Source: Chloroflexota bacterium
Lineage (GTDB): Bacteria > Chloroflexota > Anaerolineae > Anaerolineales > Villigracilaceae
Length of the DNA: 64,000 bases
Reading direction: 5' to 3'
Assembly: GCA_039961775.1 (NCBI GenBank)
Contig: JABRVZ010000003.1
Location: 83,272 to 147,271, forward strand
Shown here: piece by piece, positions 27,284 through 47,770 of the stretch
Position numbering within the stretch: the stretch's first letter is position 1
Layout: each line of letters starts with the position of its first letter
Position numbers and translations under genes: made by a program
The notes under the pieces: model-generated
What the model saw: only the letters and a program-made list of their open reading frames with translations
Database searches by the model: none
Told to the model about the DNA's origin: nothing

Positions 27284-28617
27284 GCGTGAACCCCGTCGAG
27301 CAGAGCGCGCAGGTCTGCCAGGGCGCGTTCGGCGTAAGCCCTGCCGCGTTCCCGTTTGTGGACTTTCGCCTCCAGCGGCGGCAGGATGCCAAAATTTGCC
27401 TTCATTGGCTGAAAGTCCTTGAGATCGGCATGCGTGACGTAGTGACACAATGCGCCGAGCATGGTGGTGGGAGGCAGGGTGAGCGGTTCTTCTCCGTGAA
27501 GCAGGCGCGCCGCATTGACGCCCGCCAGCAGACCGGTGGCAATGTTGCCCATGTAGCCTTCCACGCCCGTGATTTGACCGGCGAAGAACAAGTCATCGCG
27601 CTGGCGGAATTGCAGGGTGGGGCGCAGGAGTTTGGGTGAGGCGATGAACGTGTTGCGGTGCATCTGCCCGTAGCGCAGGAACTCGGCGTTTTCCAAGCCC
27701 GGAATCATGCGGAAGACGCGTTTTTGCTCCGGGAATTTCAGGTTGGTCTGGAAGCCCACCATGTTATACAGGCTTCCCGCCAGATTGTCCTGACGCAATT
27801 GCACCACCGCGTACGGACGTTTTCCCGTGCGCGGGTCGCGCAGCCCTACCGGGCGCATGGGACCGAACGCGAGCGAATCCAGCCCGCGTTCTGCGATGAT
27901 TTCCACCGGCAGACAGCCCTCGAAGAATTGCCCCGCCTTCACGCCGCTTTTGATGGCATCCTCGAAGGAGCGCAATTCGATGCGTTCGGCTTGCAGGAGC
28001 GCCTCCACGAAGGCGTAATACTCTTCCTTCGTCATCGGGCAGTTGATGTAATCGCCCTCCTCCTGCTCCCCTGTGCCGTAGCGCGAGGCGCGAAAAGCGA
28101 TGTCCATGTTGATTGAATCGGCGTGGATGACCGGCGCGATGGCGTCGAAGAAAAACAGGTGTTCCTCGCCGCTCAGCGCTGCAATGGACTGTGACAACGC
28201 CGGCGAAGTCAACGGCCCGCTGGCGACGATGGCGGGGGCGCTCGGTATCTCCCGCACCTCCTCGCGGACGATTTCGATTCGGGGATGCGCTTCGATGCGC
28301 TCGGTCACTTTGCGGGCGAACAGTTCGCGGTCCACTGCCAGCGCTCCGCCCGCCGGCAGAGCCGCCTCCCCGGCGCATTCCAACAGCATCGAGCCGAGCA
28401 GACGCGCCTCTTCCTTGAGCAGACCGGAGGCGCGGTCGGGAAGGTTCGAGCCGAGCGAATTCGAGCAGACGAGTTCCGCCAGGTCTGGGGTCTGATGCGC
28501 TCCCGTCGGCACCTGGGGGCGCATCTCGAAGAGGCGCACGTTCAATCCGCGCTGGGCGGCTTGCCAGGCGGCTTCACTTCCAGCCAGCCCGCCGCCGATG
28601 ATGATGAGTTCAGTCAT
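27280..28617 (-). CDS. trmFO: Folate/FAD-dependent tRNA (uracil-5)-methyltransferase
   Basis: [58 protein letters not shown]. Confidence 0.97.
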
Positions 28618-28671
28618 ATTTTGATTCTACCATTTCACCTCTGCGGATTCCCCTGCTGTATAATTGCTTCG

Positions 28672-31293
28672 ATGACCGAAACCGCCGCGATTGAACTCCA
28701 ACTCAAAGAAGCCTGCCAGTTGACCGACGCCGCCTGGTCGGCGCTGGTGGAGCGGGAAGCGGGAAAGTGGCGTGTGGCGGCGCACTATCATCTGGGGAAG
28801 AAATCCCACTCTGCGCTTGTTAAATTCCTTGAAGATACTGAAGTGGACGCCTGGCTTTCCGGCGCGTTGAGCGGAGGAGGCAGCCGTTCTGTTTCTCTGC
28901 CCTCCTCGAGCGCCCTGCGGGTCGAGCGCCTGTATGCCTTCCCGGTGGCGGGGGCTTCTCAGGTGGTCCTGGCGGGGGCGGGATTGCTCAGCCTGCCGGC
29001 GCAGCGCATCTGGCGGCTGGCAGTGAGCGGCATCCGCGCGGAGTCAGCCCATCCTGAGTCGCCCGCTTCCTCGGTGGCGGCGTCTCTCCTGATGCCGGAT
29101 TTGAACTCCGAAAGCCCCTACGACCTGCCGCGCGCCCTTCACCGCGCTCTGGATGCCTTCACCCGCCTCGTTCCCGTACAGGGAGCCTGGTTCGCCATCC
29201 GGCGGGCGGACTCTCTCGAAATCCGCGCCCAGTGGAACGCGCCTGCCCTCGCCGACCTGGTTCTGCAGATTGACGCCCATTCCCTTCTGCGGCGCATGAA
29301 CCGTAACCTCACGCCCGTCGCCGTTCAGCGCGGCGATGCGCTGTGGGCGCAGATTCCGCACAAAGGGCTGAAGGCGGGCGTCAAAGCCTGGATTTGCGTG
29401 CCGCTGGTCATCGGTCAGCGGTTGATCGGCGCTGTTGGCATGTGGCGTTCTTCCAACTTCAAAGCAGAGGAATGGAACCGCCTCGTGGATCTGGCAACCC
29501 AGATTGCACCGGCGCTCGAAACGCTCATCACGTTTGCCGAAATGGCAGGACATTTGCGCCGTCTTGCCATGCTGAACGACTTTGCTCTTACCGTTGCCAC
29601 CGGGCGCAGTCTCGACCAGATTGCGCGGCGTCTGTTTGCCCTGCTTTCCCGCGCTTTCGGCACCGAGTTGATTGTGCTGGATTTGTTCTCCTCCGAAGAC
29701 GTGATTCAGGAATACCGCATGGAAGCCGGAAACCTGGTCTCCATCCTGCGCAGCGCAGAGGGGCATCCCATCTCCCGCCTGCTGACCAGCGACCAGATGA
29801 TGCGGCTGAGCGACATGGGGGCAGAGTCCGCTTTACCGTTATACAACGGCGCACTTTCGGGCATCTACGCGCCGCTGCGCCTGCGCGGTCAACGCATTGG
29901 GGCGCTGAGCGTGGAAAGCCGGTTGAGGAATGCCTTCAGCCCATACGATGAAAGCCTGCTGGTTGTGCTCGCCAGTCATCTCGCCAGCCTGGCAGATTAC
30001 ACGCGCGTCCGTGAGGAGGCGGAGGGCAGGGCGAGGAACCTGGGGGTCATCCATGAGGTCGTTCAGCAGATTGTCGGTCTGACCGACTCCCGCCAGGTGG
30101 CGGAAGCCACTGCCAGCCTGCTGGCGCGGTATTTTTCCTACGAACTCACGACAGTTTTTATTGCCGATGAAAGCGGCAGCCTGACCATCAGCGGCTTTGG
30201 CGGCGTCAGCCCCAATGTGGTGCGGCGGGCGATGAAATCCGTCACCTACCCTGTGCGCGGCGGCATTACCGGCTATGTCTTCGAAAGCGGACGCGGCGTT
30301 CTGGTCAACGATGTGCTGCAAGATGAGCGTTACACGCCCATCAAAGGCTGGCAGGCAGGGTCGGAGATGTGCGTGCCCATCCGCGACGCCTCGAAGGTGC
30401 TGGGCGTCATCAATGTGGAGAGCAGTTCGCGTAATGCCTTCACCCATAACGATTACATTGCCCTCGAGTCGCTGGCGGGCATTCTGGCGGCGGTCATCAC
30501 CAGCGCCAACCAATATCAACGGCTGCAAGAGACCATCTATCAACTGCGCGAAACCGAGATGGAACTCAACGCGCGCATGGAAGCGCAGCGGCTGGCGGAG
30601 AACCGCCTCGTCCAGGCTGCTAAATTGGCGGCGGTGGGCGAGATGGCGGCGGGCATTGCCCATGAATTGAACAACCCCCTCACCTCCGTGACCGGCTTTG
30701 CCGAACTGGTGATGAACGACCTCCCCGACGATTCGCCTCTGCGCGCCGACCTGGACCTGGTCATCCGCGAGGCGCGCCGCGCGCGCGACGTGGTCCGCCG
30801 CCTGCTCGATTTTGCCCGCCAGAGCGAAAGCGCCCGCGCCAATGCCTCGCTGAACAAGGTGGTCGAAGACGTGGTAGCGCTCACGCGACATCTGATTCAC
30901 ACAAACGGGGTAGAATTGCGGCTGCATTTGCAGGAGGATTTACCCTGGGTTTCCATGGACGAAAACCAAATGAAACAAGTCCTGCTCAACCTTGTTCACA
31001 ACGCCCTGCAAGCCATGCCGGGCGGCGGTCAACTGGAGATACGAACCGCCGCTGTCCCCAAAGTGGGACGCGAAGGCGTCATCGTCTCGGTGCGCGACAG
31101 CGGGGTGGGCATTCCTCCGGAGATTCAAACCCGCATCTTCGAACCGTTCTTCACCACCAAAGCCAACCGCGGCGGAACGGGGCTTGGGCTTTCCGTCACT
31201 TACGGCATCGTTTCTGCACACGGCGGCGAAATCGAACTCATCAGCCAGCCCGGCGCCGGCTCCACCTTCACCGTCTGGCTTCCGAAAGGGTAG
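28672..31293 (+). CDS. Multi-GAF sensor histidine kinase
   Basis: Several GAF units (VPLVIG.RLIG; APLRLRG.RIG; VPIRD..KVLG), AHELNNPLT, NLVHNALQA, GGTGLGL. ATG 7 nt after TATAAT. Confidence 0.9.
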   Translation: MTETAAIELQLKEACQLTDAAWSALVEREAGKWRVAAHYHLGKKSHSALVKFLEDTEVDAWLSGALSGGGSRSVSLPSSSALRVERLYAFPVAGASQVVLAGAGLLSLPAQRIWRLAVSGIRAESAHPESPASSVAASLLMPDLNSESPYDLPRALHRALDAFTRLVPVQGAWFAIRRADSLEIRAQWNAPALADLVLQIDAHSLLRRMNRNLTPVAVQRGDALWAQIPHKGLKAGVKAWICVPLVIGQRLIGAVGMWRSSNFKAEEWNRLVDLATQIAPALETLITFAEMAGHLRRLAMLNDFALTVATGRSLDQIARRLFALLSRAFGTELIVLDLFSSEDVIQEYRMEAGNLVSILRSAEGHPISRLLTSDQMMRLSDMGAESALPLYNGALSGIYAPLRLRGQRIGALSVESRLRNAFSPYDESLLVVLASHLASLADYTRVREEAEGRARNLGVIHEVVQQIVGLTDSRQVAEATASLLARYFSYELTTVFIADESGSLTISGFGGVSPNVVRRAMKSVTYPVRGGITGYVFESGRGVLVNDVLQDERYTPIKGWQAGSEMCVPIRDASKVLGVINVESSSRNAFTHNDYIALESLAGILAAVITSANQYQRLQETIYQLRETEMELNARMEAQRLAENRLVQAAKLAAVGEMAAGIAHELNNPLTSVTGFAELVMNDLPDDSPLRADLDLVIREARRARDVVRRLLDFARQSESARANASLNKVVEDVVALTRHLIHTNGVELRLHLQEDLPWVSMDENQMKQVLLNLVHNALQAMPGGGQLEIRTAAVPKVGREGVIVSVRDSGVGIPPEIQTRIFEPFFTTKANRGGTGLGLSVTYGIVSAHGGEIELISQPGAGSTFTVWLPKG

Positions 31294-31303
31294 GGAATTT
31301 GCC

Positions 31304-32890
31304 ATGGAATCCGCTTCTGTCTTTGTCGTTGACGACGAAGCCGGCATTGCCTTGCTGTGCAGCCGCGTCCTGACGCGCGCCGGCTACGAAGTCCAATCCG
31401 AAACCAATCCCCGCGCCGCAGTCGAAATCCTCGGTCAGCGCCGCTTCGACCTGCTCCTCGTGGACATTCGCATGCCCGAAGTGGACGGTTTCGACGTCAT
31501 CTCGCGCGCCAAACGCGCCCAGCCTGATATTGCCGTGCTGGTGATGACCGGCTTCGGCACCGTCGAAACCGCCATCCGCGCTTTGCGCCAGGGAGTGGAT
31601 GGGCTTTTGCTCAAACCATTCGAAAAAGGGGACGAACTGATTGCCGCCGTGGAACAGGCGCTTACCGATAACCGCCGCAAGCGCGAAACCGCCCGCGCGC
31701 AGGCGCTCCGTCCCCTCTTCGACGCCACCGAACGGCTGTTTTCCGAGACCAACTCAGACAAACTGTACCCCCTTATCGTTGACACGGTTTGCGAACATTT
31801 GCAATGTCCCAACGCCGCATTTTACCGGCTGGAGCCGAACGGTTTTTCGCTGGTCTCCAAACGGGGGAACGTCTTGCCGGTAGAGGCGGGCGGCTTTGCG
31901 GCTGACCTTCTGCAAAGGGTGGCGTCAGATGGGAAACCGATCCTCGTCAACGCCACAGGACCGGGGGAGAAAGAGGCGCAGGCGCTTCTTTCGGACCTCA
32001 AACTTGGCGCGGCAATCCTGATTCCAATTTCACGCTCAGACCTGCGCGCCGTCCTGTTTGCCGCAAGAGACGCAGGCGTGGCTCCTTTTCGCGGCACCGA
32101 CCTGGAGCTGTTCCACATCCTTGCCAGCCAGTCGCTGGTGGCGTTGGAAAACGCCCGCCTGTACGCCGACCTGCGCGCCTATGTTCGCAAAGTGGAAGAA
32201 TCCCAGCAGGCGCTCCTGCGTTCGGAAAAGATGGCGGCGGCGGGCAGGCTGACGGCTTCGATTGCGCATGAAGTCAACAACCCTTTGCAGTCTGTGCAGA
32301 ACTGTCTGCACCTTGCCGGGCGCGAAGACCTGCCGGCGGAAAAACGCAAACAATACTTCGAGCTGGCTCGCTCCGAACTCGAACGTCTGATGAAAACCAT
32401 GCACCGTATGCTCGATTTCTACCGCCCCGGCTCGGTCAAAATGGAAAAGGTGGATGTGTTGGAACTGCTGAAGCATGTGCTCAGTCTTACCTCCCAGCAG
32501 TTGGGGCAGCGGCACATCGAGGTCATCGCCGAACTGCCCGAGTCTTTGCCCCCGGTGCTGGCGGTGAGCAGTCAGATTCAACAAATTTTCATCAATCTGA
32601 TTTTGAACGCCTTCGACGTGATGCCCGGCGGAGGCGCGCTCTACATCCGTGCGAAAGAGCTGGAAAACGGCGTGGAGATACAATTCGAAGACACGGGACC
32701 CGGCATACCCGAAGAACTGCGCAACAACATCTTCGAGCCATTCTTCAGCACCAAGGAGGGCGGCACCGGTTTGGGGCTGACGGTGAGTTACAATATCGTC
32801 ACCGCGCACGGCGGCACATTGGACATTGTGAAAGGAAGCGGCGATGGCGCCTGTTTCCGCTTATTCCTGCCCACGGGAGAAATATCATGA
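31304..32890 (+). CDS. REC-GAF-histidine kinase
   Basis: VVDDE...LVDIRMP...KPF receiver, then GAF, AHEVNNPL, NLILNA, GGTGLGL. Confidence 0.9.
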   Translation: MESASVFVVDDEAGIALLCSRVLTRAGYEVQSETNPRAAVEILGQRRFDLLLVDIRMPEVDGFDVISRAKRAQPDIAVLVMTGFGTVETAIRALRQGVDGLLLKPFEKGDELIAAVEQALTDNRRKRETARAQALRPLFDATERLFSETNSDKLYPLIVDTVCEHLQCPNAAFYRLEPNGFSLVSKRGNVLPVEAGGFAADLLQRVASDGKPILVNATGPGEKEAQALLSDLKLGAAILIPISRSDLRAVLFAARDAGVAPFRGTDLELFHILASQSLVALENARLYADLRAYVRKVEESQQALLRSEKMAAAGRLTASIAHEVNNPLQSVQNCLHLAGREDLPAEKRKQYFELARSELERLMKTMHRMLDFYRPGSVKMEKVDVLELLKHVLSLTSQQLGQRHIEVIAELPESLPPVLAVSSQIQQIFINLILNAFDVMPGGGALYIRAKELENGVEIQFEDTGPGIPEELRNNIFEPFFSTKEGGTGLGLTVSYNIVTAHGGTLDIVKGSGDGACFRLFLPTGEIS

Positions 32891-33621
32891 AACCCAACAT
32901 CCTTGTCGTTGACGATGAGCCTGTTGCACGTCAGTCGCTTTCGGACATTTTGCGCCTCGAAGGGTATGCGGTCAGCGCTGTGCCAAATGGACAGGCGGCG
33001 GTCGAATATGTCCGCACACATCCCATTGACTTGATGATCGTGGATTTGCGCATGCCGGGCATGGACGGGCTGGAGGTGGTTCAGGTTGTCAACCAGATTT
33101 CGCCGGAGACTGAGATCATCCTGCTCACCGCCTACGGCACAACCGAATCTGCCATTCAGGCGCTGCGTTTGCGTGTGCACGATTATCTGCTCAAACCCGC
33201 CTCCCCCTCGCAGGTCATCAACAGCATCAAGAAAGGGCTGGCGCGGCGGGATGCACGCCTGAAGGCAAAGGGCGGATCAGTTTCGGCGGATGTGGAAGAA
33301 GCGCCCCTCGAATTTTCCCTCCCCGACGGCACCCGCATCGACCTCTCCCGCCGCCTGATTCAGAAAAAAGACCAGATGATTCATCTGACGCCCGCCGAAG
33401 GGCGGCTCCTGCGCGTCCTCATGGAAAATCCGGGAAGGGTGTACACCCACCGCGAGCTTGTCCTGCTTGTGCAGGGCTACGATACGTCCCAGCGAGAGGC
33501 GCCAGAGATTTTGCGTCCGCTGGTCAGCCGCCTGCGCCACAAACTGGAGGCTTTTCCGTCCCTGTCGCGGGCAATCGTCAGCGTGAGGGGGACGGGCTAC
33601 TTGTACGAAGTGGAAAAGTAG
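32887..33621 (+). CDS. OmpR-family response regulator
   Basis: Receiver (VVDDE, DLRMP, KP) plus winged helix (LTPAEGRLL, VSRLRHKL, VRGTGY). Confidence 0.93.
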   Translation: MKPNILVVDDEPVARQSLSDILRLEGYAVSAVPNGQAAVEYVRTHPIDLMIVDLRMPGMDGLEVVQVVNQISPETEIILLTAYGTTESAIQALRLRVHDYLLKPASPSQVINSIKKGLARRDARLKAKGGSVSADVEEAPLEFSLPDGTRIDLSRRLIQKKDQMIHLTPAEGRLLRVLMENPGRVYTHRELVLLVQGYDTSQREAPEILRPLVSRLRHKLEAFPSLSRAIVSVRGTGYLYEVEK

Positions 33622-33630
33622 CGTAAAGAA

Positions 33631-33659
33631 CAGACCTCCGGCTGGAAGCCGGAGGTCTG
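33631..33659. terminator. Hairpin between convergent genes (probable terminator)
   Basis: CAGACCTCCGGCT / AGCCGGAGGTCTG, 13-bp perfect stem. Confidence 0.7.
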
Positions 33660-33662
33660 GGT

Positions 33663-34604
33663 TTAATGCTTGTAAAAGTCTGTGGGGAATTCGGGCGGTT
33701 GCAGCCAGGAAAGAAGTCCCCTGGCGTAAAGCGGTCGGTTGACCGGCTTCTCGAACCAGACCAGCAACAGGCTGGAACTCAATCCGGCTGTTCCTATCCA
33801 TTGCCAGGAGGTGAGCGTTTCGCCGAGCAAAAGGTGGCTGAACGTGATGGCGACCAAAAGTTCGGCAAGACCGAGCAGGGCAGTTTGCATCCCGCCGATG
33901 TTCTTGACGCCCAAAAACAGCAGGAGCCGCGAGCCAAAGGTGACCGCTGTCAGCCCCAGCACGGGCATCCATTGAGGATCGGCAGGAGGGGGCGGGCTGG
34001 CGATGAAATAGGCAGGAACGACGATGGCGCTCATCGCCAGCAGGGTGTACACGGTCACGGTGGGGGCGGGAACGTCGTACAACACCCGCTGATTGACCGG
34101 TAAATGCAGGGCGTAGAGCGCGGCAGAAATCAGCATAAAAATTACGCCGGTCAGGTTGATACCTCCCGAGTCGACGCGGGTCAGCAGAAGCGCCGAAAAA
34201 CCTGCGATAACGATGCGAATGACGGTCAGGCGGGAGGGCGGTTGTCCGTCCAGTTGCAGCCAGAACGCCACGAACAAGGGGTAAAGGGCATAAAGCATTT
34301 GCGCCACGCTGGCGTTCAATTTACTCAACCCCACATAGTAGAAAATCGAACCAATGCCGTTCAATGCCCCAGCCAGAAGACACCCATACAGCCCCGCCGG
34401 GTAGATATACAAATACTGCCGGCGGAAGATGAGCATAATCAATACAAGCAGCGCCGCCGCTATGCTTGTGCGAAGCGCCACCACCGCATAGGGTGAGAAC
34501 TGTCCCTCTCCCATTGCCGCTTTGCCAAACACGGGAGCCATGCCAATGAGAGCGGCTGAAATCAGCGCGGCGCTGATACCCTGGGAGCGTTTTTTTTTCG
34601 ACAA
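33663..34604 (-). CDS. DMT/EamA-family transporter
   Basis: About 10 TM in two repeats; YYVGLSKLNASVA...YPLFVA; LAELLVAITFSHLLLGE. Confidence 0.88.
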   Translation of the reverse strand: MSKKKRSQGISAALISAALIGMAPVFGKAAMGEGQFSPYAVVALRTSIAAALLVLIMLIFRRQYLYIYPAGLYGCLLAGALNGIGSIFYYVGLSKLNASVAQMLYALYPLFVAFWLQLDGQPPSRLTVIRIVIAGFSALLLTRVDSGGINLTGVIFMLISAALYALHLPVNQRVLYDVPAPTVTVYTLLAMSAIVVPAYFIASPPPPADPQWMPVLGLTAVTFGSRLLLFLGVKNIGGMQTALLGLAELLVAITFSHLLLGETLTSWQWIGTAGLSSSLLLVWFEKPVNRPLYARGLLSWLQPPEFPTDFYKH

Positions 34605-34745: not shown

Positions 34746-36422
34746 TCACTTGATCAAGGCGCGGACTTCTTCGAGAAATTCGTCGTTCAGAAAATCACCC
34801 TTGAGCATCAGGGACTGGATTTGCCCCTGCAGGCGGCTTTTCTCGTCCACAGTCAGTTCCTTGGCGGTGGCGACGATAACGGGGATGTTGGCTGTCTCCG
34901 GCTGACTGCGCAGTATATCCATGACGGTGAAGCCGTCCATTTCGGGCATCATCAAGTCGAGAATGAGAAGATCGGGGCGTTCGCGGTTGACCAGTTCGAT
35001 GGTTTCGCGCCCGTTGACGGCTTCGAAGATTTCAAAATCACCCTGCGACTGCAAAATTCGGCGGATGAGGCGGCGCGCCTCGGCGGTGTCATCTGCCACC
35101 ACCACGCGCGGGAAGCGGTTCGGCGTCACATTGTTGAGGGCGGAGAGCAGCCCCTCTTGCGGGGTCTCCGCTTCTACCTGTTTATGGCGCAGGTCAATAT
35201 CGCGTGTCCAACCTTCGCCGAACAGATATTGCTCGGCGGGCATGGTGTGACCGGTGCAATTCACCACTACTACATCATCCGGCTTGATTATGCCGGCGCG
35301 CACCAGTTTGAAAAGCCCGGCAAAGGCAGTCGCAGAGGCGGGTTCAGCGGAGATGCCCTCCATCTTTGCCAGCACGTGCATCGCGCGAAAGGATTCTTCA
35401 TCCGAAACGCTCTCGAAGACCCCGCCAGTTTCATTGACCTGTTTGCGCAGCATGACGTAGGTGCGCCCAGGGTCGCCGGTTGCCAGCGTTTCGATGCGCG
35501 TTTTGGGCGAGCGCACCGGCTCGGCTTTTTCGAGCCCTTTGCGCCAACTCTCCACCATCGGCGCACAGCCATCCACCTGAATTGGGGCGATGGCAGGGAT
35601 GCGGTCAATCAGCCCCAGCGCCTTCAACTCACGGAAGCCCTTGTACACGCCGAGCGGTCCCAGCCCTCCGCTGATGGATTGCACATACCAGTCGGGCGTG
35701 CGCCATTTCGGACGGTCTTCTGTGGACTCTGGCGGAGCGCCGTTTTGCAGGGTCAACTGTTCGGCAATTTCGAACGCCAGCGTTTTCATTGCCTCCACCG
35801 CTGTGACCGTGCGTGCGCCCATGTCCTGATACAAACCACGCTGGCGGGCAAACTCTGCCGCCATGATTTTCGCCTCATCGTAGGAGCCGGTGATTTTGAC
35901 CACCTGACTGCCATACAGGGCGATCTCGCGCATCTTGACCCCCGGAACGAGGCTGGTGACGAACGCCCAAAGTTTGATCCCCGCCCGAGCCGCATACGCC
36001 GACAGCGAGATAGCGACATTGCCTGTGGAGGCGGCAACCATTTCAGTGATGCCCGCTTCCTTGAGCGCGGCAATCGTCAGCGCCGCCTGCCGGTCCTTGA
36101 AGGAGGAGGTGGGTCCCTGGCGCTCGTCCTTGATGTAGAGATTGTTCAGCCCCAGCATCATTCCCAGATTGACGGCTTTGATGAGCGGCGTGCCGCCCTC
36201 GCCAAGCCGCAGGCTGGGATTGGGGTTGTGAATGGGCAGGAGTTCCTTGTAACGCCACAAATCGAACTCACGGTTTTTCAGTTGTGACGGAAAGGTTTTT
36301 GCCACCTCCGCCATGTCGTATTCGGCTTCGCGCCACTGACTGGAGCAATTGGGGCATTGCATGGAACTGGGCGTGAAGGGAGCGGCATGCCCGCAATCGA
36401 GACAACGAATGACAAATGACAT
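34746..36422 (-). CDS. Threonine-synthase-like PLP enzyme (N-terminal Zn ribbon) fused to a C-terminal receiver domain
   Basis: CLDC...CPNC, LGEGGTPL, SFKDR (PLP Lys), ASTGN, EPASA. C-terminal VVADD...LILDLMMPEMDG...TAK...KG. Confidence 0.88.
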   Translation of the reverse strand: MSFVIRCLDCGHAAPFTPSSMQCPNCSSQWREAEYDMAEVAKTFPSQLKNREFDLWRYKELLPIHNPNPSLRLGEGGTPLIKAVNLGMMLGLNNLYIKDERQGPTSSFKDRQAALTIAALKEAGITEMVAASTGNVAISLSAYAARAGIKLWAFVTSLVPGVKMREIALYGSQVVKITGSYDEAKIMAAEFARQRGLYQDMGARTVTAVEAMKTLAFEIAEQLTLQNGAPPESTEDRPKWRTPDWYVQSISGGLGPLGVYKGFRELKALGLIDRIPAIAPIQVDGCAPMVESWRKGLEKAEPVRSPKTRIETLATGDPGRTYVMLRKQVNETGGVFESVSDEESFRAMHVLAKMEGISAEPASATAFAGLFKLVRAGIIKPDDVVVVNCTGHTMPAEQYLFGEGWTRDIDLRHKQVEAETPQEGLLSALNNVTPNRFPRVVVADDTAEARRLIRRILQSQGDFEIFEAVNGRETIELVNRERPDLLILDLMMPEMDGFTVMDILRSQPETANIPVIVATAKELTVDEKSRLQGQIQSLMLKGDFLNDEFLEEVRALIK

Positions 36423-36497
36423 TTGCTGATTCTTTCTTTTTGCCGCCCCAGAACTATACCAGGCGGCAAACAGTCTTTAGAATATTGTTGGGACGGC

Positions 36498-39400
36498 TTA
36501 ACCGCCAATTCGTTTGAGTGCGTTTTCAATGCTGGCAATCAAATCGTTTTCGGTGAGCGATCCCTTGGCAATGAGCCTTTTGCCGTACTCGGCAAGTTGT
36601 TTGTGCTGTTCGTTGGTGAGCCCGCCGCCGCTGACCACCAGTACCGGTATCTCGCGGAGCGCCGGTTCTTCCATCATTTTTTCGAGAATCATGAAGCCAT
36701 TCATCTCCGGCATGAAGATGTCAAGAATGACGGCGTCTGGCGGATTGGTGTTGAGGATTTCCCAGCCGCGGCGTCCGCCTTCGGCAAGAACTGGTTGATA
36801 TTTGCCGTGTTCGGTCAGGATTTTTTCGATGAGGCGTAAGTCGTTGGGGTCGTCATCAACGACCAGCACGCGGCGGATTTTGTCGTTTTTGTCGAGGCGT
36901 TCCAGCGCATGGACAAGGTCTTCTTCGAGAATGGGTTTGACCAGGTAGTCTGCCGCGCCGAGGGTGAAGCCCTTGTCGGTTTGTTCGACGATGGAACAGA
37001 TGATGATGGGCACGTCTCGCGTGGCAGGATCAGATTTGAGGTCGGTCAGAACCGACCAGCCATCCACGTTGGGCATCATGATGTCGAGGGTCACGGCAAA
37101 GGGGTTGATTTCCTTCACTTGTTCCTTTGCCCTGGCAGGTTCGGTCAGAGCGACGACGTGGTATCCCTGCGGCGTGAGGTAGCGTTCGTAGAGACTGATG
37201 ACCTGCGGGTCGTCGTCAATGGCAAGCACAATTTTTTTGCCCGCCGGAATTTCCCCGGCTGGCTGGCGGAAGAGCGGCATGGTGAACCAGAAGGTGGAGC
37301 CTTTGCCCTCCTCACTTTCGACGCCGATGCGCCCCCCATGGAGTTGAACGAGGTTGGCGCAAATGGAGAGACCCAGTCCCGAGCCGCCCGTCTTGCGGGT
37401 GGCGGAGCCATCCACCTGCGAGAACGCCTTGAATAGTTTTTCCTGACCTTCCGACGATATGCCGGGACCGGTGTCGATCACTTTGATGAGCGCCTCGAAT
37501 TTTCCGTTTGGCGCTTTTTGCACGGAGGTCTCGACGGTGATGAAGCCCTCGTCGGTGAATTTGGCGGCGTTGGAAATCAGGTTGAGCAAAATCTGACGCA
37601 CACGCATCGTGTCGCCGCGGACAGTGGGCATTTCCGGCGGAACCTTTTCGATGAGTTGGATGGGCTTTTCCTTGACAAGTCCTTTCGCCGTGGAGAAGAC
37701 GCTGTGAATCATCTCGGCGAGGTGAACTTCCTCGAAGTTGAGTTCCATCTTGCCGGCTTCGATGCGTGCCAGGTCGAGGATGTCGTTGATGAGTCCGAGC
37801 AGGTGCTGACCCGAATTGTAGATGGCGGTGAGGTCCTGCTGCTGCATGTCGGTGATGGGACCATCTATGCCCTTCAGGATGACGCGCGAGAAGCCGATGA
37901 TGGAGTTCAGCGGGGTGCGCAGTTCGTGGCTCATGTTGGCGAGGAACTGACTCTTGAGTTTGTCCACTTCCTGGAGGTTCTTGATGAGTTCCTGCGATTC
38001 AAGGTACAGGGTGGCGTTGTTGATGGCAACGGCAACCTGGTCTGCCAGAGATTGAAGGATGGAAAGCGCATCGGTGGTGAAGGCGTGCGGCTGGGTAGAT
38101 TGAATGTCAATCACGCCGAGCGCCTTGCCGCTGACCTTGAGCGGAATGGCGACCTCTGATTGCGTGTCGAGCAGGAGCGGGTTGGGCTGGTACAGGCGGT
38201 CGGTGGCGGTGTCGTTGACAATGACGGTGTCACCTTTTTCCGCCGCTTTGCCTACGATGGTTTGCGAGCCGACGGGGACCCTGTATCGTTGGGCTTTCAT
38301 TTTTTCGCCGGCGCCGCCTGTCGCTTCGCGCAGGATGACATGGTAGCCGTCTTCGTCCATCTGATAGATGGCGGCGAAGTAGAAGCCTAGGCGGTCGCTG
38401 ACCAGATTGACGGTCTGTGCGAAGATCGTGTTGAGGTCGAGCGTGGAGGTGACGAGCCGCCCGATTTCGGCGGAAGCGGCAAGGTAGATGTTGCGCCGCT
38501 CCAGGGCTTCTCGGGCTTCCAGGCGTTCCAGCGCGGCGGATGTTTGAGCGGCGATTGCCTCGAGGATTTCTTCGTGCTTTTCTGTGAGGCGTATGGCAGG
38601 GTTATAGGTCTGAACCGCCATGACGCCTCGTACCGCGCCGCGGCTTTTCATCGGCACCCCAAGCCAGTCCACGCTGGGAGCGCCGTCGGAGACAATTTCG
38701 CCGCTGGCTTCGAGGTCGGCAAAGATTTCCGGAGTGACGCGCAGGCGTTTACCGGAACGGATGACATAAGAGGTGAGCCCGCGCCCCAGTTTGCGAGGCG
38801 CCCAGTCGTCGTCGTATTCATCCGCGTGATAAGGGAAGGTAATCTGTTGAATCTCCGGGTCGTAGAGCGCCACGAAGAAGTTTTTGGCTGGCAGAAGTGG
38901 TTGAACGGATTCGTGTACGGTGCGGAGTAATTCTTCTGCTGATTGAGCCGTCAGAGCGCTCTCGGTGATGTGCGTGATGGCGTCCTGGGTGAGTTCGTTG
39001 ATCTTACGGTCGGTGATGTCGTGCGCCACCCAAAAGACCTCGGTTTCGCTCAACTTGGAGACGTTGGCGTCGAACCAGAAGCGGCTGCCTTGAATTTCCA
39101 ACGGATATTCGATGCGCACAATTTCATCGCTATTCAACGCATCGAGGATGGCTTTCATAACCGGTTCGCAAAGGTCCGGCGGCAGGACATCGCGGATGTT
39201 TTTTCCCACCATTTCGTCGGGGGGGCGAACCAGCAGGGAGGGGTTGGTGGGTGCGATGCGGACGTAGGTGCCATCCTTGTCGTACACGATAATGACGTCA
39301 TTCATGGCGGCGAACAACGCCCGCAGTTCTGCCTCGGAGCGCTTGGTCTCCTGGAATAGACGGGCGTTTTCGAGCGCCAGCGTCAGTTGGTCGGTCACCT

Positions 39401-39716
39401 GACGGGCGAGCAGTTGGTCTTCCTCCGTCCAGACACGCTGATTGGTTTCATCAACAACCTGCAGGGTCGCCCAGGTATCGGTGCTCAGTTTGAAATCCAG
39501 CGCCAGGGCGGTTTCCGTGAGGGGTGCCGCTTTGGCGCGGCGAACAATGCCGGGGTGTTTTGCTGCCGGCAGTTCCTTGCCCGATACCGCTGCAGGCGGC
39601 TGGGACGCGCCGGCAGGAGCAACCGCCTGAGGTTCGACGCTCGGTTCTTCGTGCTTGATGTCTTCGAATAGTTTGTCAAGCCGCCTGTCGAGCGGTTTCT
39701 TCTTTGGCATATTCAA
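36498..39716 (-). CDS. Hybrid histidine kinase: basic peptide / half-GAF / PAS / GAF / GAF / HisKA / HATPase / REC / REC
   Basis: ANMSHELRTPLN, NLISNAAKFT, DTGPGI, GGSGLGL. Two receivers (TLDIMMP; ILDIFMP). Start may be at 39710. Confidence 0.93.
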   Translation of the reverse strand: MNMPKKKPLDRRLDKLFEDIKHEEPSVEPQAVAPAGASQPPAAVSGKELPAAKHPGIVRRAKAAPLTETALALDFKLSTDTWATLQVVDETNQRVWTEEDQLLARQVTDQLTLALENARLFQETKRSEAELRALFAAMNDVIIVYDKDGTYVRIAPTNPSLLVRPPDEMVGKNIRDVLPPDLCEPVMKAILDALNSDEIVRIEYPLEIQGSRFWFDANVSKLSETEVFWVAHDITDRKINELTQDAITHITESALTAQSAEELLRTVHESVQPLLPAKNFFVALYDPEIQQITFPYHADEYDDDWAPRKLGRGLTSYVIRSGKRLRVTPEIFADLEASGEIVSDGAPSVDWLGVPMKSRGAVRGVMAVQTYNPAIRLTEKHEEILEAIAAQTSAALERLEAREALERRNIYLAASAEIGRLVTSTLDLNTIFAQTVNLVSDRLGFYFAAIYQMDEDGYHVILREATGGAGEKMKAQRYRVPVGSQTIVGKAAEKGDTVIVNDTATDRLYQPNPLLLDTQSEVAIPLKVSGKALGVIDIQSTQPHAFTTDALSILQSLADQVAVAINNATLYLESQELIKNLQEVDKLKSQFLANMSHELRTPLNSIIGFSRVILKGIDGPITDMQQQDLTAIYNSGQHLLGLINDILDLARIEAGKMELNFEEVHLAEMIHSVFSTAKGLVKEKPIQLIEKVPPEMPTVRGDTMRVRQILLNLISNAAKFTDEGFITVETSVQKAPNGKFEALIKVIDTGPGISSEGQEKLFKAFSQVDGSATRKTGGSGLGLSICANLVQLHGGRIGVESEEGKGSTFWFTMPLFRQPAGEIPAGKKIVLAIDDDPQVISLYERYLTPQGYHVVALTEPARAKEQVKEINPFAVTLDIMMPNVDGWSVLTDLKSDPATRDVPIIICSIVEQTDKGFTLGAADYLVKPILEEDLVHALERLDKNDKIRRVLVVDDDPNDLRLIEKILTEHGKYQPVLAEGGRRGWEILNTNPPDAVILDIFMPEMNGFMILEKMMEEPALREIPVLVVSGGGLTNEQHKQLAEYGKRLIAKGSLTENDLIASIENALKRIGG

Positions 39717-40461
39717 TCAACTCCTGAGCGAGGACACGATATTGCTGCGAGCCGCGGCTGGTGGGTTTGTAGTGAATGATGGGCACGCCGGCGATCGGGC
39801 TTTCCCTGAGTTTGGTGTCAATTTCGATGACGGTGGTAAAAACGCCCTGCCCAAAGGTGGCTTGCAGCTGCTCGAAGATATTGCGGTGTGTGCGGTTGCG
39901 GCGGTCGAGGAGGGTGACCAGAATACGGTAGGCAAGCGCAGGATTGACTTCCTGACGGATGCGGCGGATGGTCCCCATCATGTTGCGCAGCGCGTAGGCG
40001 GAGAAGTATTCTGCCTGGGTGGGGATGATGAGCAGGTTTGCAGCGGCGAGCGCGTTGAGGGTGATCGCTCCGAGGGCGGGCGGGCAGTCGAACAGGATGT
40101 AGTCGTAGGGAAGCGGTTCAGCCGCCAGTGCGTCGCGGAGTGTGGTCAGGTAATGATTTCGCATGGGCAGGAATTGCTCCGCATTTTCGATGCGAAAACT
40201 GGACGGCACCAGGGAAAGGTTACGAATTTCGGTGGCGCGGACGGCGGTTTTAAGGGGCGCGCCTTCAATCAGCACGTTTGCCGAGGTGATGCTTGTCTCG
40301 TCGGTTTCCAAACCAAGGGCGAGCGAAAGGTTCGCCTGCGGGTCGAGGTCCACCAGCAGGACGCGGTAATTCAGTTCGGCAAGCGCCGCGCCCAGCGAAA
40401 GCGTGGAGGTGGTTTTGGCGACGCCTCCCTTTTCGTTCGACATTGCGATTGCGTATGCCAT
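39676..40461 (-). CDS. ParA/Soj-family ATPase (orphan, no adjacent parB)
   Basis: KGGVAKTT deviant Walker A, DLDPQAN, DCPP, LIIPTQAEY. Confidence 0.92.
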   Translation of the reverse strand: MAYAIAMSNEKGGVAKTTSTLSLGAALAELNYRVLLVDLDPQANLSLALGLETDETSITSANVLIEGAPLKTAVRATEIRNLSLVPSSFRIENAEQFLPMRNHYLTTLRDALAAEPLPYDYILFDCPPALGAITLNALAAANLLIIPTQAEYFSAYALRNMMGTIRRIRQEVNPALAYRILVTLLDRRNRTHRNIFEQLQATFGQGVFTTVIEIDTKLRESPIAGVPIIHYKPTSRGSQQYRVLAQELIEYAKEETARQAA

Positions 40462-40462
40462 C

Positions 40463-42976
40463 TTACTTGTCCTTTCCGTCCGAAGCCTTGGGCAGGATTT
40501 CCACACGGGTGGCGCCAAGCGCCTGACGCAGTTCCTGCAGGGCGGTTTCGATCATGGCTTGCGGGTCGTTATGGTTGCGTATCTTGCCGGTGATTTCCGA
40601 GACCAGCCGTTCGCGTTCGGCGCGGCGGGTTGTTTCTTCGAACAGGCGGGCGTTTTCTGCGGAGAGCGCCACGCGTTCCGCCACCGCCTGAATGAGGTCT
40701 TTTTCGTCCTCACCCCATTGGGATGCGGATGCAGATTGGACGACCAGCCTGCCGATGACTTCGCCGCGCAGTTCGATCGGGACGACAATCGAGGTTGTTT
40801 CAGCCTTCTCAGCCTTTTTCTTGTCTGGAAGCGGCATGTCCAACTTGATGGGCTCGGTGAGGGGCACTGCCCCCATGGTATTGTAGCGGTAGCCGAGCAG
40901 TTTTTGGCTGTGCGGCAAACGTTTCCATGCTTCGCGAGTGGACTGGCGCATGAGTGTTTGCAGTTCTTCAAGCGCGCGGTTGGAAGCATCGAACAGACGC
41001 GCATTTTCGATGGCGAGGCTTACCTGTTCGGCGAGCAGACTGAGCGTTTGCACGTCTTCTTCGGTGAAGGCGCCGACTTCCGTGCTTTGCACGTCGAGCG
41101 CGCCGATGACTTTGCCGCCGCTGAAGAGGGGCAGCGCCATTTCGGAGTGGGTGTCGGGGAGGTCGGGGTTGTTGAAGTAGACGGCATCCACCCCGACGTC
41201 GAGGGCGATGCGCGGTTTTCCGCTTCCCGTCACGCTGCCGACGATGCCTTGTTCGCCTACTTTCAGGCGGTGTCGCCTTGCCAGCATTCTCTGACCGCCT
41301 TCGCTGTTAGCCGCGGCAAGTACGGCGTATTCGTTGTTTTCATCGAGCAGGAAGATGCCGACATGGTAAAAGCCGTACTTTTCGCTGATGACCGACGTCA
41401 CGTGCGGGAGGAGTTCCTTGGGGTCGCGGATGGAAGCGATGGATTGGGCGACCTGCGCCATTGCCTCGAATTGTGCCGCGCGGCGGTGAAGTTGGGCGTT
41501 TGCCGCTTCCAGCTCACGTCCGCGTTGTTCGACTTCCCGGGTGCGTTCGGCGACGCGCATTTCGAGCGAGTCGATGGATGTCTTGAGTTCCGCCGCCATG
41601 GCGTTGAGGGTGGAGGCAAGGGTGCCGATTTCGTTTTGCTCGGTGATGGCTGCGCGCGCTTCCAGGTTACCTTTTGCCATTTCTTCGGCGGTACGGGTGA
41701 GCGAAAGCAGAGGGGCTATCAGGCTGTTGCTGAAATTGCGGGTGGCGAGCAGGGTGAGCCCGAAGATGCCCAGAACGACGAAGAGACTGATGCCCAGCGC
41801 ATTGCGGCTTTCGCGTTCGAGTTGTTGGCGGGCTTCCAGCGCTTTGGCGAGCATTTCATTGACCGGTACGATGATTGCCAGGCTGAAGCCCGCGCGTTGT
41901 ACCGGGCGGTAAACGACGAACCTCCTGGTGCCGTTCAGGCTGAGTTCTGTGAAGCCGCTGTTGCCGGCGGTCATTTCGGTGAGTATGGGCGCGAGTTCTC
42001 TGGCGGTGCTTCCCAGGTTGGTGGCAGTGAGTTTGCCTCCCAGCGGTAACATGTTCGGGTTGATGTTCAGATCGGCGTAGCCCGCATTGGGCATGGCAAT
42101 CAGCCGCCCGTCGCGGTCGAGCAGGAATGCGTAGCCGCTCTCTGCCACGCTGATATTACCGACGATTTCCGAGATTTTAGTTAGTTGAATATCCTGCGCA
42201 ACGACGCCAGCCAGTCTGCCTGCCGCATCGTAGACCGGCGCGCTGTTGGTGATGACAATACCGTTGAGCGCGGCGTCCAGATACGGCTCTGACCAGACCG
42301 CCCCTTTGCCAGGATTTGCTTCCGGCGCCGCCGCCGTGTACCAGGGTCTGCCGGTGACGTCGAAATCGGGAGGGACGATGGCGGCAAGGTCTATGTTGGG
42401 GTAATAGAGCGTGTACCCCGAAGAACCGCCAAAGTACACGGCGATGACATCGGGATTGGCTTCAAGGATGGAGGGGGCAATCAAGTCCATGTGGCGGATG
42501 ATGTTCAAATCCGCTTTCATTGAGTCGGAGAGGTCGGCTGCGGCAGGGATAAATACGGAGCCGATTTCTGTGTTGGGGTTATCCCAACTGCCCTTGTCGT
42601 TGCGGGAAAGCGATGTGCCGGCGTCCCAAAATGCGCCGGTTTCGAAAGACTGCCGGTTCAGCAGAAGGTTCTGGTCATATTCTCTCAACGAGAGGATGCC
42701 TGCCTCCAGCGACGCGAAAAAGTTCGATAAAGTTTCTGTCTTTCGGTCGGCTGTAATGGCAAGCAGGGTCTCGGCTTCATTACGTGTGGCGGCGTCGAGA
42801 CGTGAAATCAGGGCGGAGTTGGTCTGCCGCGTGCGGATGAATACGAAGACGCCCATGATGGCAAGCGCCAGAAACACGATGGCAATACTGCCGCGAACCA
42901 GCCTGTTGCGAATGGACGGCTGAGGCGCTGAATAGGATTGCGGAGAACCGCCGGTGGGTTTCACTGCATCTGTCAT
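40463..42976 (-). CDS. TM-dCache-TM-HAMP-GAF receptor with split-GAF tail, no catalytic domain
   Basis: FDVTGRPWY..WSEPY dCache, HAMP EIGTLA, conserved GAF, PIELRGEVIG...ENARL...RERLVSEI tail. ATGA overlap with the upstream gene. Confidence 0.85.
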   Translation of the reverse strand: MTDAVKPTGGSPQSYSAPQPSIRNRLVRGSIAIVFLALAIMGVFVFIRTRQTNSALISRLDAATRNEAETLLAITADRKTETLSNFFASLEAGILSLREYDQNLLLNRQSFETGAFWDAGTSLSRNDKGSWDNPNTEIGSVFIPAAADLSDSMKADLNIIRHMDLIAPSILEANPDVIAVYFGGSSGYTLYYPNIDLAAIVPPDFDVTGRPWYTAAAPEANPGKGAVWSEPYLDAALNGIVITNSAPVYDAAGRLAGVVAQDIQLTKISEIVGNISVAESGYAFLLDRDGRLIAMPNAGYADLNINPNMLPLGGKLTATNLGSTARELAPILTEMTAGNSGFTELSLNGTRRFVVYRPVQRAGFSLAIIVPVNEMLAKALEARQQLERESRNALGISLFVVLGIFGLTLLATRNFSNSLIAPLLSLTRTAEEMAKGNLEARAAITEQNEIGTLASTLNAMAAELKTSIDSLEMRVAERTREVEQRGRELEAANAQLHRRAAQFEAMAQVAQSIASIRDPKELLPHVTSVISEKYGFYHVGIFLLDENNEYAVLAAANSEGGQRMLARRHRLKVGEQGIVGSVTGSGKPRIALDVGVDAVYFNNPDLPDTHSEMALPLFSGGKVIGALDVQSTEVGAFTEEDVQTLSLLAEQVSLAIENARLFDASNRALEELQTLMRQSTREAWKRLPHSQKLLGYRYNTMGAVPLTEPIKLDMPLPDKKKAEKAETTSIVVPIELRGEVIGRLVVQSASASQWGEDEKDLIQAVAERVALSAENARLFEETTRRAERERLVSEITGKIRNHNDPQAMIETALQELRQALGATRVEILPKASDGKDK

Positions 42977-45834: not shown

Positions 45835-47770
45835 TTTGGCTTCCCATCGTGTCCGCATGGAGTTGTACCAGCACTTCGGAGCCGCCCAGGGCGCGGCTGA
45901 GTTCTTCCACGGCGGTGCGCAGGATGGCGTCAATCTGGGTGGTGGCGGTGATTCTGCTGGAGATGTCGGTGGTGATGCGTTCGAGTTCTGCGCGCCGCTG
46001 GGTGGTTTTGAGCAGCAGCGAAGTTTCGAGCGCCAGTGACAGGCGTTCTGCCACGGCTTCGGCAATGTCCACTTCGTCTTCATCCCATTCGTGTTCGCCG
46101 CGGGTGTGGATGTCGAGCACGCCGATTACCTCGCCGCGCAGGCGAATGGGAACGGCAAGCGTGGCGTTTACGCCGCTTTCCGCCACTGTCTGTTTTTCGG
46201 TCAGCGCTTTGCGGTTATGAGCGTTCATCCACGGACGGGAGAGAGGCGCAACTTCATCGCCGGATGCCTTGAAGCCGATTCTTGCGCTGTCGGCTTGCAG
46301 AATGCGCCAGGCGTCCTGCAGGTAGGCGACGGATGTTCTTTGGGCTTTTTCCAGCAGTTCCTGCATGGATTCGAAGGAGCGGGCATTTTGAATTGCCACG
46401 GCAATCTGGTCGGCAAGGGTGGTCAGCACGCGGACGTCTTCCTGCTGGAAGGCGTTGGGCTGGGTGCTTTGTACATCCAGGACGCCGATGGTTTGTCTGC
46501 CGATGATGAGAGGCAGGGCAATTTCGGAGCGAGTTTCGGGGAGGTCGGGATTGTCGAAGTACACGGCATCCGCTCCCACGTCCAGGGCGATGCGGGGAGC
46601 GCCGAGGGCTGAGACGTAGCCAACGATGCCGGTCTGCCCGACCTTGAGCTTGTGTCCGCGCGCGAGCATTCTCTGTCCGCCGGGGCTGTTGGCGGCGCGC
46701 AGGACGGCGTACTCGTTGTTTTCGTCCAGGAGGAAGATGCCCACATGGTAGTATCCCATCCGCTCGCTGATGGCGGTTGTGATGCGCGGAAGCAGGCTTG
46801 GCAGGCTTTCAAGGGAGGTTGCGGCTTTGACGATTTCTGAAATGATTTCGAGCTGACCAGCGCGTTTTTCGAGCGTTTCAACGGTCTGTTGAATTTCTTC
46901 GTTTTGTACGTTCAGGCTGGCGGCTTGACGCCGAAGTTGCTCCTCGTCTGCCTGCTGAACGGCGAGCAGGTCGTTGAAACTTTCGATGACCTGGTTGAGT
47001 TCACGGATGCCGGTGTGCAGTTCCAGCCGTTTGCCTGCTTCCCGAACGCTGGAGGTGGCTTTCGCCAATTCCAACACGGGATTGGCAATTCGTGTGCCTG
47101 CCAGCCAGCCCAGCGCCGCGGCGCCTGCGGCGGACGCCAGGAACAAAAGCACAAAGGTGCGGAAAAACTCCTGTTGTTGCGCCAGGATGTCCTGTGCCAG
47201 AATATCCACGCCGACGATGCCTTCCAATTGCCCGTCGGAGCGGTAGAACGGAGCATAGGCGGTCAGGTAGGTGCCGAATTCATCGGTGTAGAACTCGGTT
47301 TCGACTGCCGGGGCGCGCAAGGTATCGAAGTTTTCAAGCAGGAACCCGCTTGGGCTTTCATAAACCGAGCCAATTTCAACCGGCTGGTACTCTTCGGGCG
47401 GTGCGCCGGGTTCGTGACCGGCGTCCAGGACGAAGTAGATTTCACCCGCTGTATTTTTGCGCATGGTGTACACGTACAGGATTTCCGGGTCGGTGGCGGC
47501 AATGGCGAAGCCTTTGGCTTGCAGTTCCCGGTAGGCGTCGGTGTCCATGTCGGCAGGGGTTTGCAGTTGCGCATGGAGGTCGCCGTTGATTTGCAGGGCG
47601 GCGTTCGCGGCAATGGCTGTCAGTTTGTGCTGCTTTTCGCGGAGCAGGTTATTGCGCGCTTGCGAGTAGGAAAGCGAAATTGTCAGCGCACTGATGAGCA
47701 CACCGGCAATGGCAAAACCAATGGCAAGACGGAAGCGCAGGCTGGTCAGCCGTTCCATTAAGGCTTTCAT
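45827..47770 (-). CDS. TM-single Cache-like-TM-HAMP-GAF receptor with split-GAF tail
   Basis: YVYTMRK..YFVLD...YTDEFGTYLTAYAP...GVD sensor, conserved GAF and tail. ATGA overlap. Confidence 0.85.
   Translation of the reverse strand: MKALMERLTSLRFRLAIGFAIAGVLISALTISLSYSQARNNLLREKQHKLTAIAANAALQINGDLHAQLQTPADMDTDAYRELQAKGFAIAATDPEILYVYTMRKNTAGEIYFVLDAGHEPGAPPEEYQPVEIGSVYESPSGFLLENFDTLRAPAVETEFYTDEFGTYLTAYAPFYRSDGQLEGIVGVDILAQDILAQQQEFFRTFVLLFLASAAGAAALGWLAGTRIANPVLELAKATSSVREAGKRLELHTGIRELNQVIESFNDLLAVQQADEEQLRRQAASLNVQNEEIQQTVETLEKRAGQLEIISEIVKAATSLESLPSLLPRITTAISERMGYYHVGIFLLDENNEYAVLRAANSPGGQRMLARGHKLKVGQTGIVGYVSALGAPRIALDVGADAVYFDNPDLPETRSEIALPLIIGRQTIGVLDVQSTQPNAFQQEDVRVLTTLADQIAVAIQNARSFESMQELLEKAQRTSVAYLQDAWRILQADSARIGFKASGDEVAPLSRPWMNAHNRKALTEKQTVAESGVNATLAVPIRLRGEVIGVLDIHTRGEHEWDEDEVDIAEAVAERLSLALETSLLLKTTQRRAELERITTDISSRITATTQIDAILRTAVEELSRALGGSEVLVQLHADTMGSQND

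Follow-up and report, generated by a model that had tools for sequence, protein, structure and literature searches.

In almost all two-component systems, the end point is a transcription factor or else a second-messenger enzyme. Galperin is said to have catalogued response regulators with enzymatic outputs, including the rarer fusions to metabolic enzymes. Receivers joined to metabolic enzymes form a recognised, usually narrow-range class in which enzyme activity is placed under environmental control (PMC5847659). Here, we describe a locus in which the pathway appears to terminate on a vitamin-B6 amino-acid enzyme accompanied by a transporter. The locus lies in a 64,000-nucleotide (nt) stretch, referred to as the window, of an Anaerolineales genome of the phylum Chloroflexota (assembly GCA_039961775.1, contig JABRVZ010000003.1, positions 83,272 to 147,271 of the forward strand), and its central gene, P0001, encodes a pyridoxal-phosphate (PLP) enzyme related to threonine synthase (ThrC) with a receiver domain at its C terminus. 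From sequence comparisons, we put at about 50% the probability that P0001 is an atypical response regulator whose output is a ThrC-derived PLP enzyme with a non-phosphorylated amino acid as its substrate.

The closest described relatives of the enzyme part are the zinc-ribbon (archaeal or PRK08197-type) threonine synthases, for example M. jannaschii Q58860, which, like P0001, have a Cys4 ribbon and a fold-type-II core, and, among solved structures, the short enzymes 2zsj, 1uim and 2d1f. Also in common are the S-F-K-D-R motif with the Schiff-base lysine, the S-T-G-N carboxylate loop, a glycine-rich loop for the cofactor phosphate and a threonine or serine at the pyridine nitrogen, and the identity is 27–32%, with target-normalised template-modelling (TM) scores of 0.85–0.89. 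Unlike ThrC, P0001 has its phosphate-site residues replaced, a glutamine after K-D-R, E-A-M-K-T for E-G-Q-K-T and a C-terminal receiver. The ThrC scaffold can be retargeted, because cysteate synthase (TIGR03844; CapA2, 9k3c), which like P0001 is ThrC-derived and carries a zinc ribbon, changed its substrate. Cysteate synthase still uses a phospho-ester substrate, whereas P0001 is without the phosphate ligands. The gene and its parts are as follows:

34746–36422, minus strand: PLP–receiver fusion gene P0001, ATG at 36422, 558 amino acids (open reading frame (ORF), translation, Pfam PALP and Response_reg, orthologues)
36345–36404, minus strand: N-terminal Cys4 zinc ribbon, C7, C10, C23 and C26 (cysteine conservation and ThrC models)
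35253–36209, minus strand: fold-type-II PLP domain, residues 72–390, with the Schiff-base lysine K109 at 36096–36098 (PF00291)
35781–35825, minus strand: remodelled substrate-site loop, residues 200–214, D-M-G-A-R-T-V-T-A-V-E-A-M-K-T (HMMER to 1uim and 2zsj, MAFFT, clade pattern)
35112–35222, minus strand: interdomain linker, residues 401–437 (AlphaFold2 predicted local distance difference test (pLDDT) below 50 at 401–418)
34749–35111, minus strand: receiver domain, residues 438–558, with the putative phospho-acceptor D489 at 34956–34958 (PF00072; D444, D445, T519, K541-G542)

An earlier, sequence-only reading of this DNA had noticed a zinc ribbon, a PLP fold-II core and an intact-looking receiver, and Pfam and residue conservation place all three in the protein, with the strand corrected to minus. 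The PALP family (PF00291) matched residues 72–390 with 213.9 bits against a cut-off of 35 (4e-63), and Response_reg (PF00072) matched residues 440–540 with 68 bits against 30.2 (1e-18); with E-values this low and conservation in over 100 species, the features lie far beyond chance. The ribbon cysteines, spaced C7-x2-C10 and C23-x2-C26, are all four invariant in 101 fused relatives, a set spanning 45–89% identity to P0001, and also in 45 diverse ThrC-like proteins, and the ThrC models PRK08197 and PRK05638 start aligning at residue 5. An AlphaFold2 model built on 45 relatives rendered the ribbon and the PLP core confidently (mean pLDDT 86.7, predicted TM-score 0.84), its weak parts being linker residues 401–418 and the final 40 residues of the receiver.

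Sequence and fold searches returned threonine synthases, and then cysteate synthases, as the nearest solved or reviewed structures. An ESM Atlas feature search with P0001 brought back only clusters labelled ‘threonine synthase’, the names of sequence clusters carried no useful information, and P0001 orthologues are publicly named either ‘threonine synthase’ (JGI) or ‘pyridoxal-phosphate dependent enzyme’. P0001 scored below the cut-off of every ThrC equivalog model (PRK08197, 250.8 versus 303; PRK05638, 195.9 versus 421; TIGR00260, 148.7 versus 167.1) and of the cysteate synthase model TIGR03844 (105 versus 324.9 bits), and it is 21–24% identical to the Swiss-Prot cysteate synthases. The cofactor site is kept, comprising K109, the S132-T133-G134-N135 loop, the G252-G253-x-G255-P256 loop and T/S390; in HMMER alignment to Thermus ThrC (1uim), the Schiff-base lysine K61 pairs with K109, and the S-T-G-N loop, the glycine-rich loop and the threonine at the pyridine nitrogen are all retained.

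The phosphate site differs. The residues of Thermus ThrC that bind the phosphate of O-phosphohomoserine, which we take from the 1v7c work to be T88, N154, S155, R160 and N188, correspond in the 1uim alignment to V136, G202, A203, A208 and L254 of P0001. A clear difference between canonical and remodelled sequences in the alignments agrees with these roles. That N-S-x-N-P-x-R and E-G-Q-K-T had given way to D-M-G-A-R-T-V-T-A and V-E-A-M-K-T was an observation of the sequence-only reading, and the register withstood scrutiny: HMMER alignments to 1uim and 2zsj and a MAFFT alignment that included the canonical ThrC of the same genome agreed in setting G202-A203-R204-T205-V206-T207-A208 before E210-A-M-K-T214 against N-S-x-N-P-x-R before E-G-Q-K-T. 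Across the 101 fused proteins, the five ligand positions hold V/A/I, G, I/A/V/L/S, A/S/T/G/N and M/L/I, residue 254 being always M, L or I, while K109, Q112, S132, G134, N135, G202, E210, M212, T214, G253, G255 and P256 are invariant, D/E200 is universal and K/R204 occurs in 92 of 101.

Nor is P0001 the only threonine synthase of its genome, as it would have to be under the refuting condition named in the sequence-only reading: the 4.07-Mb assembly (98.8% complete) encodes a canonical short ThrC (310.8 bits, contig C128), and C34 and C90 each carry another zinc-ribbon ThrC-like gene that exceeds its cut-off and keeps the P-x-R/E-G-x-K-T signature. The two differ in site motif: the C34 gene is a PRK08197-type ThrC with unrelated neighbours, and the C90 site reads N-P-F-T-A-E-G-K-K-T; with the fusion, on C3, the genome holds four ThrC-family paralogues among ten PALP-domain genes. 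Judged by its residues and model scores, P0001 is not a threonine synthase, and O-phosphohomoserine, already doubted as the substrate in the sequence-only reading, is very unlikely, since five phosphate ligands are replaced and the ThrC and cysteate synthase models stay below cut-off. The term ‘non-phosphorylated’ for the predicted substrate is drawn from the loss of these five ligands.

The receiver carries D444 and D445, D489 within LILDLMMP, T519 and K541, and looks functional by its residues. Among the 101 fused relatives, D489 and T/S519 are conserved in 101 each, D445 and K541 in 100 each and G542 in 99; the set of five key residues is conserved in 100 of the 101. Its closest counterpart lies in the gene directly upstream:

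36498–39716, minus strand: cytoplasmic hybrid histidine kinase P0002 with PAS, two GAF, HisKA (H597), HATPase, REC1 (D878) and REC2 (D999) domains (Pfam)

No histidine phosphotransfer (HPt) domain was detected in P0002 with Pfam. The fused receiver is 33% identical to REC2 over 120 gap-free residues, including the L-T...K-G tail in which the sequence-only reading had seen a resemblance, and could be aligned to REC1 over the first 87 residues only. In a careful tree search of 111 receiver domains from the fusion loci (126 columns), the fused receivers and the last receivers of the kinases grouped together, a branch with support 100/95 separating them from the inner kinase receivers, the N-terminal receivers of REC-kinases, the single receivers and the OmpR receivers; the finer branching is unreliable because the alignment is short. 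The fused receiver was thus probably derived from the terminal receiver of its partner kinase, or the reverse.

Probes derived from the window served to map related loci, first 26 and later 80. A GAF-rich hybrid histidine kinase immediately precedes the fusion gene, in the same orientation, in 57 of the 65 fused loci with enough sequence, and a kinase adjoins the fusion gene on either side at 71 of 75 loci; together with the sister relationship of the receivers (100/95), this bears out the earlier proposal that the fused receiver is tied to the adjacent kinase. In the clade of P0127 and P0279 (locus L021), the acidic pair of the receiver has become H-S and its lysine a serine, and the fused gene of L021 has no adjoining kinase and sits before an ornithine carbamoyltransferase and a class-III aminotransferase. 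That the receiver has degenerated in the one subclade without a neighbouring kinase (P0127, L021) is what one would expect of a kinase and a receiver that cooperate. An ornithine carbamoyltransferase and an aminotransferase also occur a few kilobases away from the fusion in L026.

All true receiver fusions formed one clade, with a Shimodaira–Hasegawa-like approximate likelihood ratio test (SH-aLRT) support of 98, in a quick maximum-likelihood search on the PLP domain (95 rows; a tree without characterised ThrC or cysteate synthase sequences, its leaves classified by NCBIfam scores and motifs). This clade is nested in a larger one (98) of receiver-less proteins with the remodelled loop; because these relatives already have the loop, the change of the substrate site preceded the gain of the receiver, which happened once. 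The remodelled site is therefore not a consequence of receiver fusion, but older and common to the receiver-less relatives. One receiver-less cyanobacterial member lies inside the fused clade. The nesting of cyanobacterial proteins in an otherwise fused Chloroflexota clade suggests receiver loss, perhaps after inter-phylum transfer. The receiver-less cyanobacterial proteins L059 (Pseudanabaena), L108 (Halothece), L022 and P0131 are sister to one Anaerolineae-class sequence.

Full-length orthologues of P0001 with 86–98% identity are abundant in Anaerolineales metagenome bins, and DNA datasets carrying the fusion gene or operon come from hot-spring, microbial-mat and sludge metagenomes. Of 401 genomes sampled from the phylum, 39 encode a full-length fusion, among them every one of the 24 that belong to the window's family; nine genomes of the phylum sample encode a second fused paralogue (~47% identity), which is absent from the window genome. 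A species-level genome scan with motifs specific to the remodelled clade yielded at least 596 relatives, fused and receiver-less. Among the best 80 of these, 75 are fused, all 75 from Chloroflexota, and the receiver-less ones are two cyanobacteria, one Limisphaerales bin and the ORFs L097 and L130, where the probes detected no receiver in sequence that lies ~150 nt from a contig end (L097) or is possibly frameshifted (L130). In a stop-to-stop ORF map, the PLP domain of L130 stands by itself and the next ORF fuses a receiver to EamA, for which a frameshift, an assembly error or a real rearrangement is possible.

The neighbourhoods of the receiver-less cyanobacterial members consist of housekeeping genes and gave no functional hint. 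Two other kinds of receiver-less neighbourhood contain a PylC-like ATP-grasp ligase with a methyltransferase, or an epimerase with a methyltransferase and an Orn/DAP-type decarboxylase; further ones contain glycosyltransferases, or a radical-SAM/SPASM enzyme with TauE and an alcohol dehydrogenase. These clusters are small and look biosynthetic, a setting in which working biosynthetic enzymes would be expected. Add-ons to zinc-ribbon ThrC-like proteins elsewhere (P0204, P0207 and P0265) include a C-terminal LeuA allosteric/dimerisation domain, a C-terminal PadR DNA-binding domain and an N-terminal inositol-monophosphatase domain, and the scaffold seems, from such architectures, prone to regulatory fusions.

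The remaining features of the locus in the window are these:

33663–34604, minus strand: EamA-type (DMT superfamily) membrane transporter P0003, downstream of the fusion gene (PF00892, 1e-27; TIGR00950 below cut-off)
33631–33659, minus strand: strong 13-pair GC hairpin right after the EamA stop codon (terminator-like scan, consensus match only)
39676–40518, minus strand: ParA/MinD-like P-loop ATPase, its end overlapping the kinase start (Pfam AAA_31, CbiA, ParA)
40463–50775, minus strand: four consecutive ORFs of ~800–1000 amino acids with dCache, HAMP and GAF domains (Pfam)
28285–33621, plus strand: divergent two-component set of a GAF kinase, a REC-GAF kinase and an OmpR-type DNA-binding regulator (Pfam)

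The minus strand thus reads four dCache/HAMP/GAF ORFs, ParA-like ATPase, hybrid kinase, fusion gene, EamA and GC hairpin, and the hairpin at 33631–33659 is likely to end the kinase/PLP–receiver/EamA transcription unit. No kinase or other output domain was recognisable with Pfam in the four dCache/HAMP/GAF ORFs. The absence of a U-tract terminator between kinase and fusion gene, claimed from the sequence alone, was borne out: the 75-nt gap at 36423–36497 contains no hairpin followed by a U-tract on the minus strand. This spacer does hold a GC hairpin, GCCGCC ... GGCGGC, with T's on its 5′ side and A's on its 3′ side in the coding strand, which is not significant against shuffled sequences (z = −1.66). 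Scanning the window for Rfam families and for tRNAs gave no hits.

Across the mapped loci, EamA lies within two genes downstream of the fusion in 45 of 58 and a REC-kinase immediately downstream in 32 of 58. The order dCache/HAMP/GAF, ParA, kinase recurs in orthologous (query-type) loci, and the GAF kinase/REC-GAF kinase/OmpR set next to EamA is co-conserved in them. The divergent genes at 28285–33621 may be the arm of this network that acts on transcription. Many loci lack a nearby DNA-binding regulator and have the PLP gene and EamA as the sole non-signalling genes of the operon; variant loci have a GNAT acetyltransferase and single receivers in the place of EamA. Members with two receivers after the PLP domain (L018, L020, L049, L050 and L137; 708–715 amino acids) have one or two single-receiver genes next to them downstream and, in the place of EamA, often a GNAT acetyltransferase.

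Starting from the domain content, the conserved residues, the lost phosphate ligands, the single fusion origin and the kinase/fusion/EamA order, all of them observed, we infer a course for phosphotransfer, catalytic regulation, type of chemistry and transported compound. The PAS/GAF hybrid kinase would autophosphorylate on H597 and from there phosphorylate the fused receiver at D489, the paralogous REC2 of the kinase probably competing for the phosphoryl group. The T519/K541 switch would then shift the docking of the receiver on the PLP domain, or the pairing of the protein, and so turn the enzyme up or down. The enzyme would bind PLP and the α-carboxylate of an amino acid; as the ThrC phosphate pocket is gone, it would make no threonine from O-phosphohomoserine, and its most likely chemistry would be an elimination or a replacement, the substrate being a non-phosphorylated amino acid, with the EamA-type permease moving substrate or product across the membrane. 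The sequence-only reading had named a directly phospho-regulated enzyme as the output, rather than a transcription factor; the first part stands as the best interpretation, and the second was too strong, because the OmpR-type regulator and two kinases at 28285–33621 are co-conserved beside the operon.

Several observations weigh against this reading. Rival partners for the phosphoryl group abound, namely the two receivers on the kinase, the REC-kinases downstream, the single receivers and the OmpR regulator, and with so many other receivers and kinases the fused receiver could be a sink or connector and not a catalytic switch. Non-catalytic PLP sensors also retain PLP-binding residues. Within the receiver, β1–β4 were modelled confidently by AlphaFold2, but α4-β5-α5 (residues 520–558) reached a pLDDT of 53–67, with β5 modelled as a helix, and the switch lysine precedes a glycine instead of the usual proline (K541-G542). 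In addition, the prevalent K/R204 could still bind an anionic group of some kind.

The PLP domain might instead be a ligand sensor, in which an amino acid, bound through PLP, alters how the receiver accepts or retains phosphate; P0001 would in that case serve as an input, sink or connector, and the real output of the branched phosphorelay would be the OmpR-type regulator close by or some other partner. We consider this unlikely, while acknowledging that the locus is rich in the receivers and kinases listed above, that the fused receiver is a paralogue of the terminal receiver of the kinase, which stands where relay receivers do, and that the distal substrate pocket has few conserved polar residues. 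The kinase and the upstream dCache/HAMP/GAF proteins already provide many sensor domains, however, and the many loci with only the PLP gene and EamA as non-signalling genes offer no nearby DNA-binding output. Receiver-less relatives with the same site sit in clusters of biosynthetic type, and the catalytic lysine and the entire cofactor site remain invariant at 45–89% identity to the query.

Less probable still is a role of P0001 as a regulatory paralogue that forms a mixed dimer with a PRK08197-type ThrC, making threonine or homoserine flux and export dependent on phosphorylation. Both the dimeric state of ThrC enzymes and the export of threonine and homoserine by E. coli RhtA, which like EamA belongs to the DMT superfamily, suit the idea. 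In loci of the second fused paralogue (L053–L056, L049 and L050), the fused gene is followed, in the place of EamA, by a single receiver and then by a PRK08197-type ThrC (577–580 bits versus 303), and two other loci (L083 and L113) have such a ThrC after EamA, a recurrence that hints at a connection with threonine or homoserine metabolism. The orthologous ThrC of the window genome is the one encoded on C34. The linkage is nevertheless confined to ~8 of ~106 loci and is not found in the window; the genome has its PRK08197-type gene on another contig and is without the second paralogue that shows the linkage, and a purely regulatory subunit would not need an intact cofactor and carboxylate site. 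We regard as highly improbable that P0001 is a genuine threonine synthase, cysteate synthase or other phospho-ester enzyme gated by phosphorylation: its best family and structure matches are ThrC, JGI names its orthologues accordingly and K/R204 might give the pocket one positive charge, but all curated cut-offs (PRK08197, TIGR00260 and cysteate synthase) are missed, the five phosphate ligands have become V, G, A, A and L/M clade-wide, and the genome already has a canonical ThrC and two ThrC-like genes with the P-x-R/E-G-x-K-T signature.

If P0001 is, as we favour, an enzyme-output response regulator, its nearest functional parallels are regulators of the CheB, PleD and RpfG type, in which a receiver and an enzyme domain are likewise fused; the P0001 receiver has an intact phospho-acceptor set and a kinase beside it. 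Unlike that type, P0001 has its receiver at the C terminus (438–558), a PLP enzyme as the output and K-G for K-P, and, unlike the receivers of enzymatic regulators, its receiver belongs to the same subfamily as the terminal receiver of the partner kinase. The order of effector first and receiver last is that of PhyR and CheV, in which phosphorylation of the receiver acts on the N-terminal partner domain; their effectors are protein-binding modules (sigma-like and CheW-like), and only the receiver fold is related to P0001. Among PLP enzymes, the fold-type-I basic amino-acid decarboxylases, such as M. tuberculosis Rv2531c, have in the same chain a receiver-like domain that moves between oligomeric states (PMC12329521). 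They differ from P0001 in PLP fold (I versus II) and in the place of the receiver-like domain (N-terminal versus C-terminal). To our knowledge, the receiver-like domain of the Rv2531c type is not a kinase-paired phospho-acceptor, whereas P0001 has the full phospho-acceptor set and an adjacent kinase, both conserved. We found no description in the literature of a fold-type-II or ThrC-like PLP enzyme with a complete receiver and a paired kinase.

The reading, if true, would amount to a direct, transcription-independent switch of a metabolic reaction, in an arrangement fixed throughout one Anaerolineales family. It would also define a ThrC-derived enzyme clade without prior characterisation, whose public annotation can be corrected, and offer a tractable in vitro system of a soluble kinase, a soluble enzyme and one aspartate. 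A further parallel comes from the autoinducer synthases CqsA and LqsA, which are reported to be PLP enzymes encoded within the two-component cqs and lqs gene clusters (PMC3376566). These synthases are fold-type-I enzymes, neither receiver-fused nor ThrC-like, and serve as a model for a possible signal product of P0001. Since the pairing with an exporter-type permease is conserved, one could tentatively picture kinase, PLP–receiver and EamA as a phosphorelay-gated factory and exporter of an amino-acid-derived small molecule, whose production and release would require a particular state of the GAF/PAS kinase network, an elaboration that we hold to be rather doubtful. Filamentous Chloroflexota might, for example, use it to make a signal between cells or a protective metabolite, and P0001 would by analogy be a counterpart of the PLP-dependent autoinducer synthases in which the synthase itself is the response regulator.

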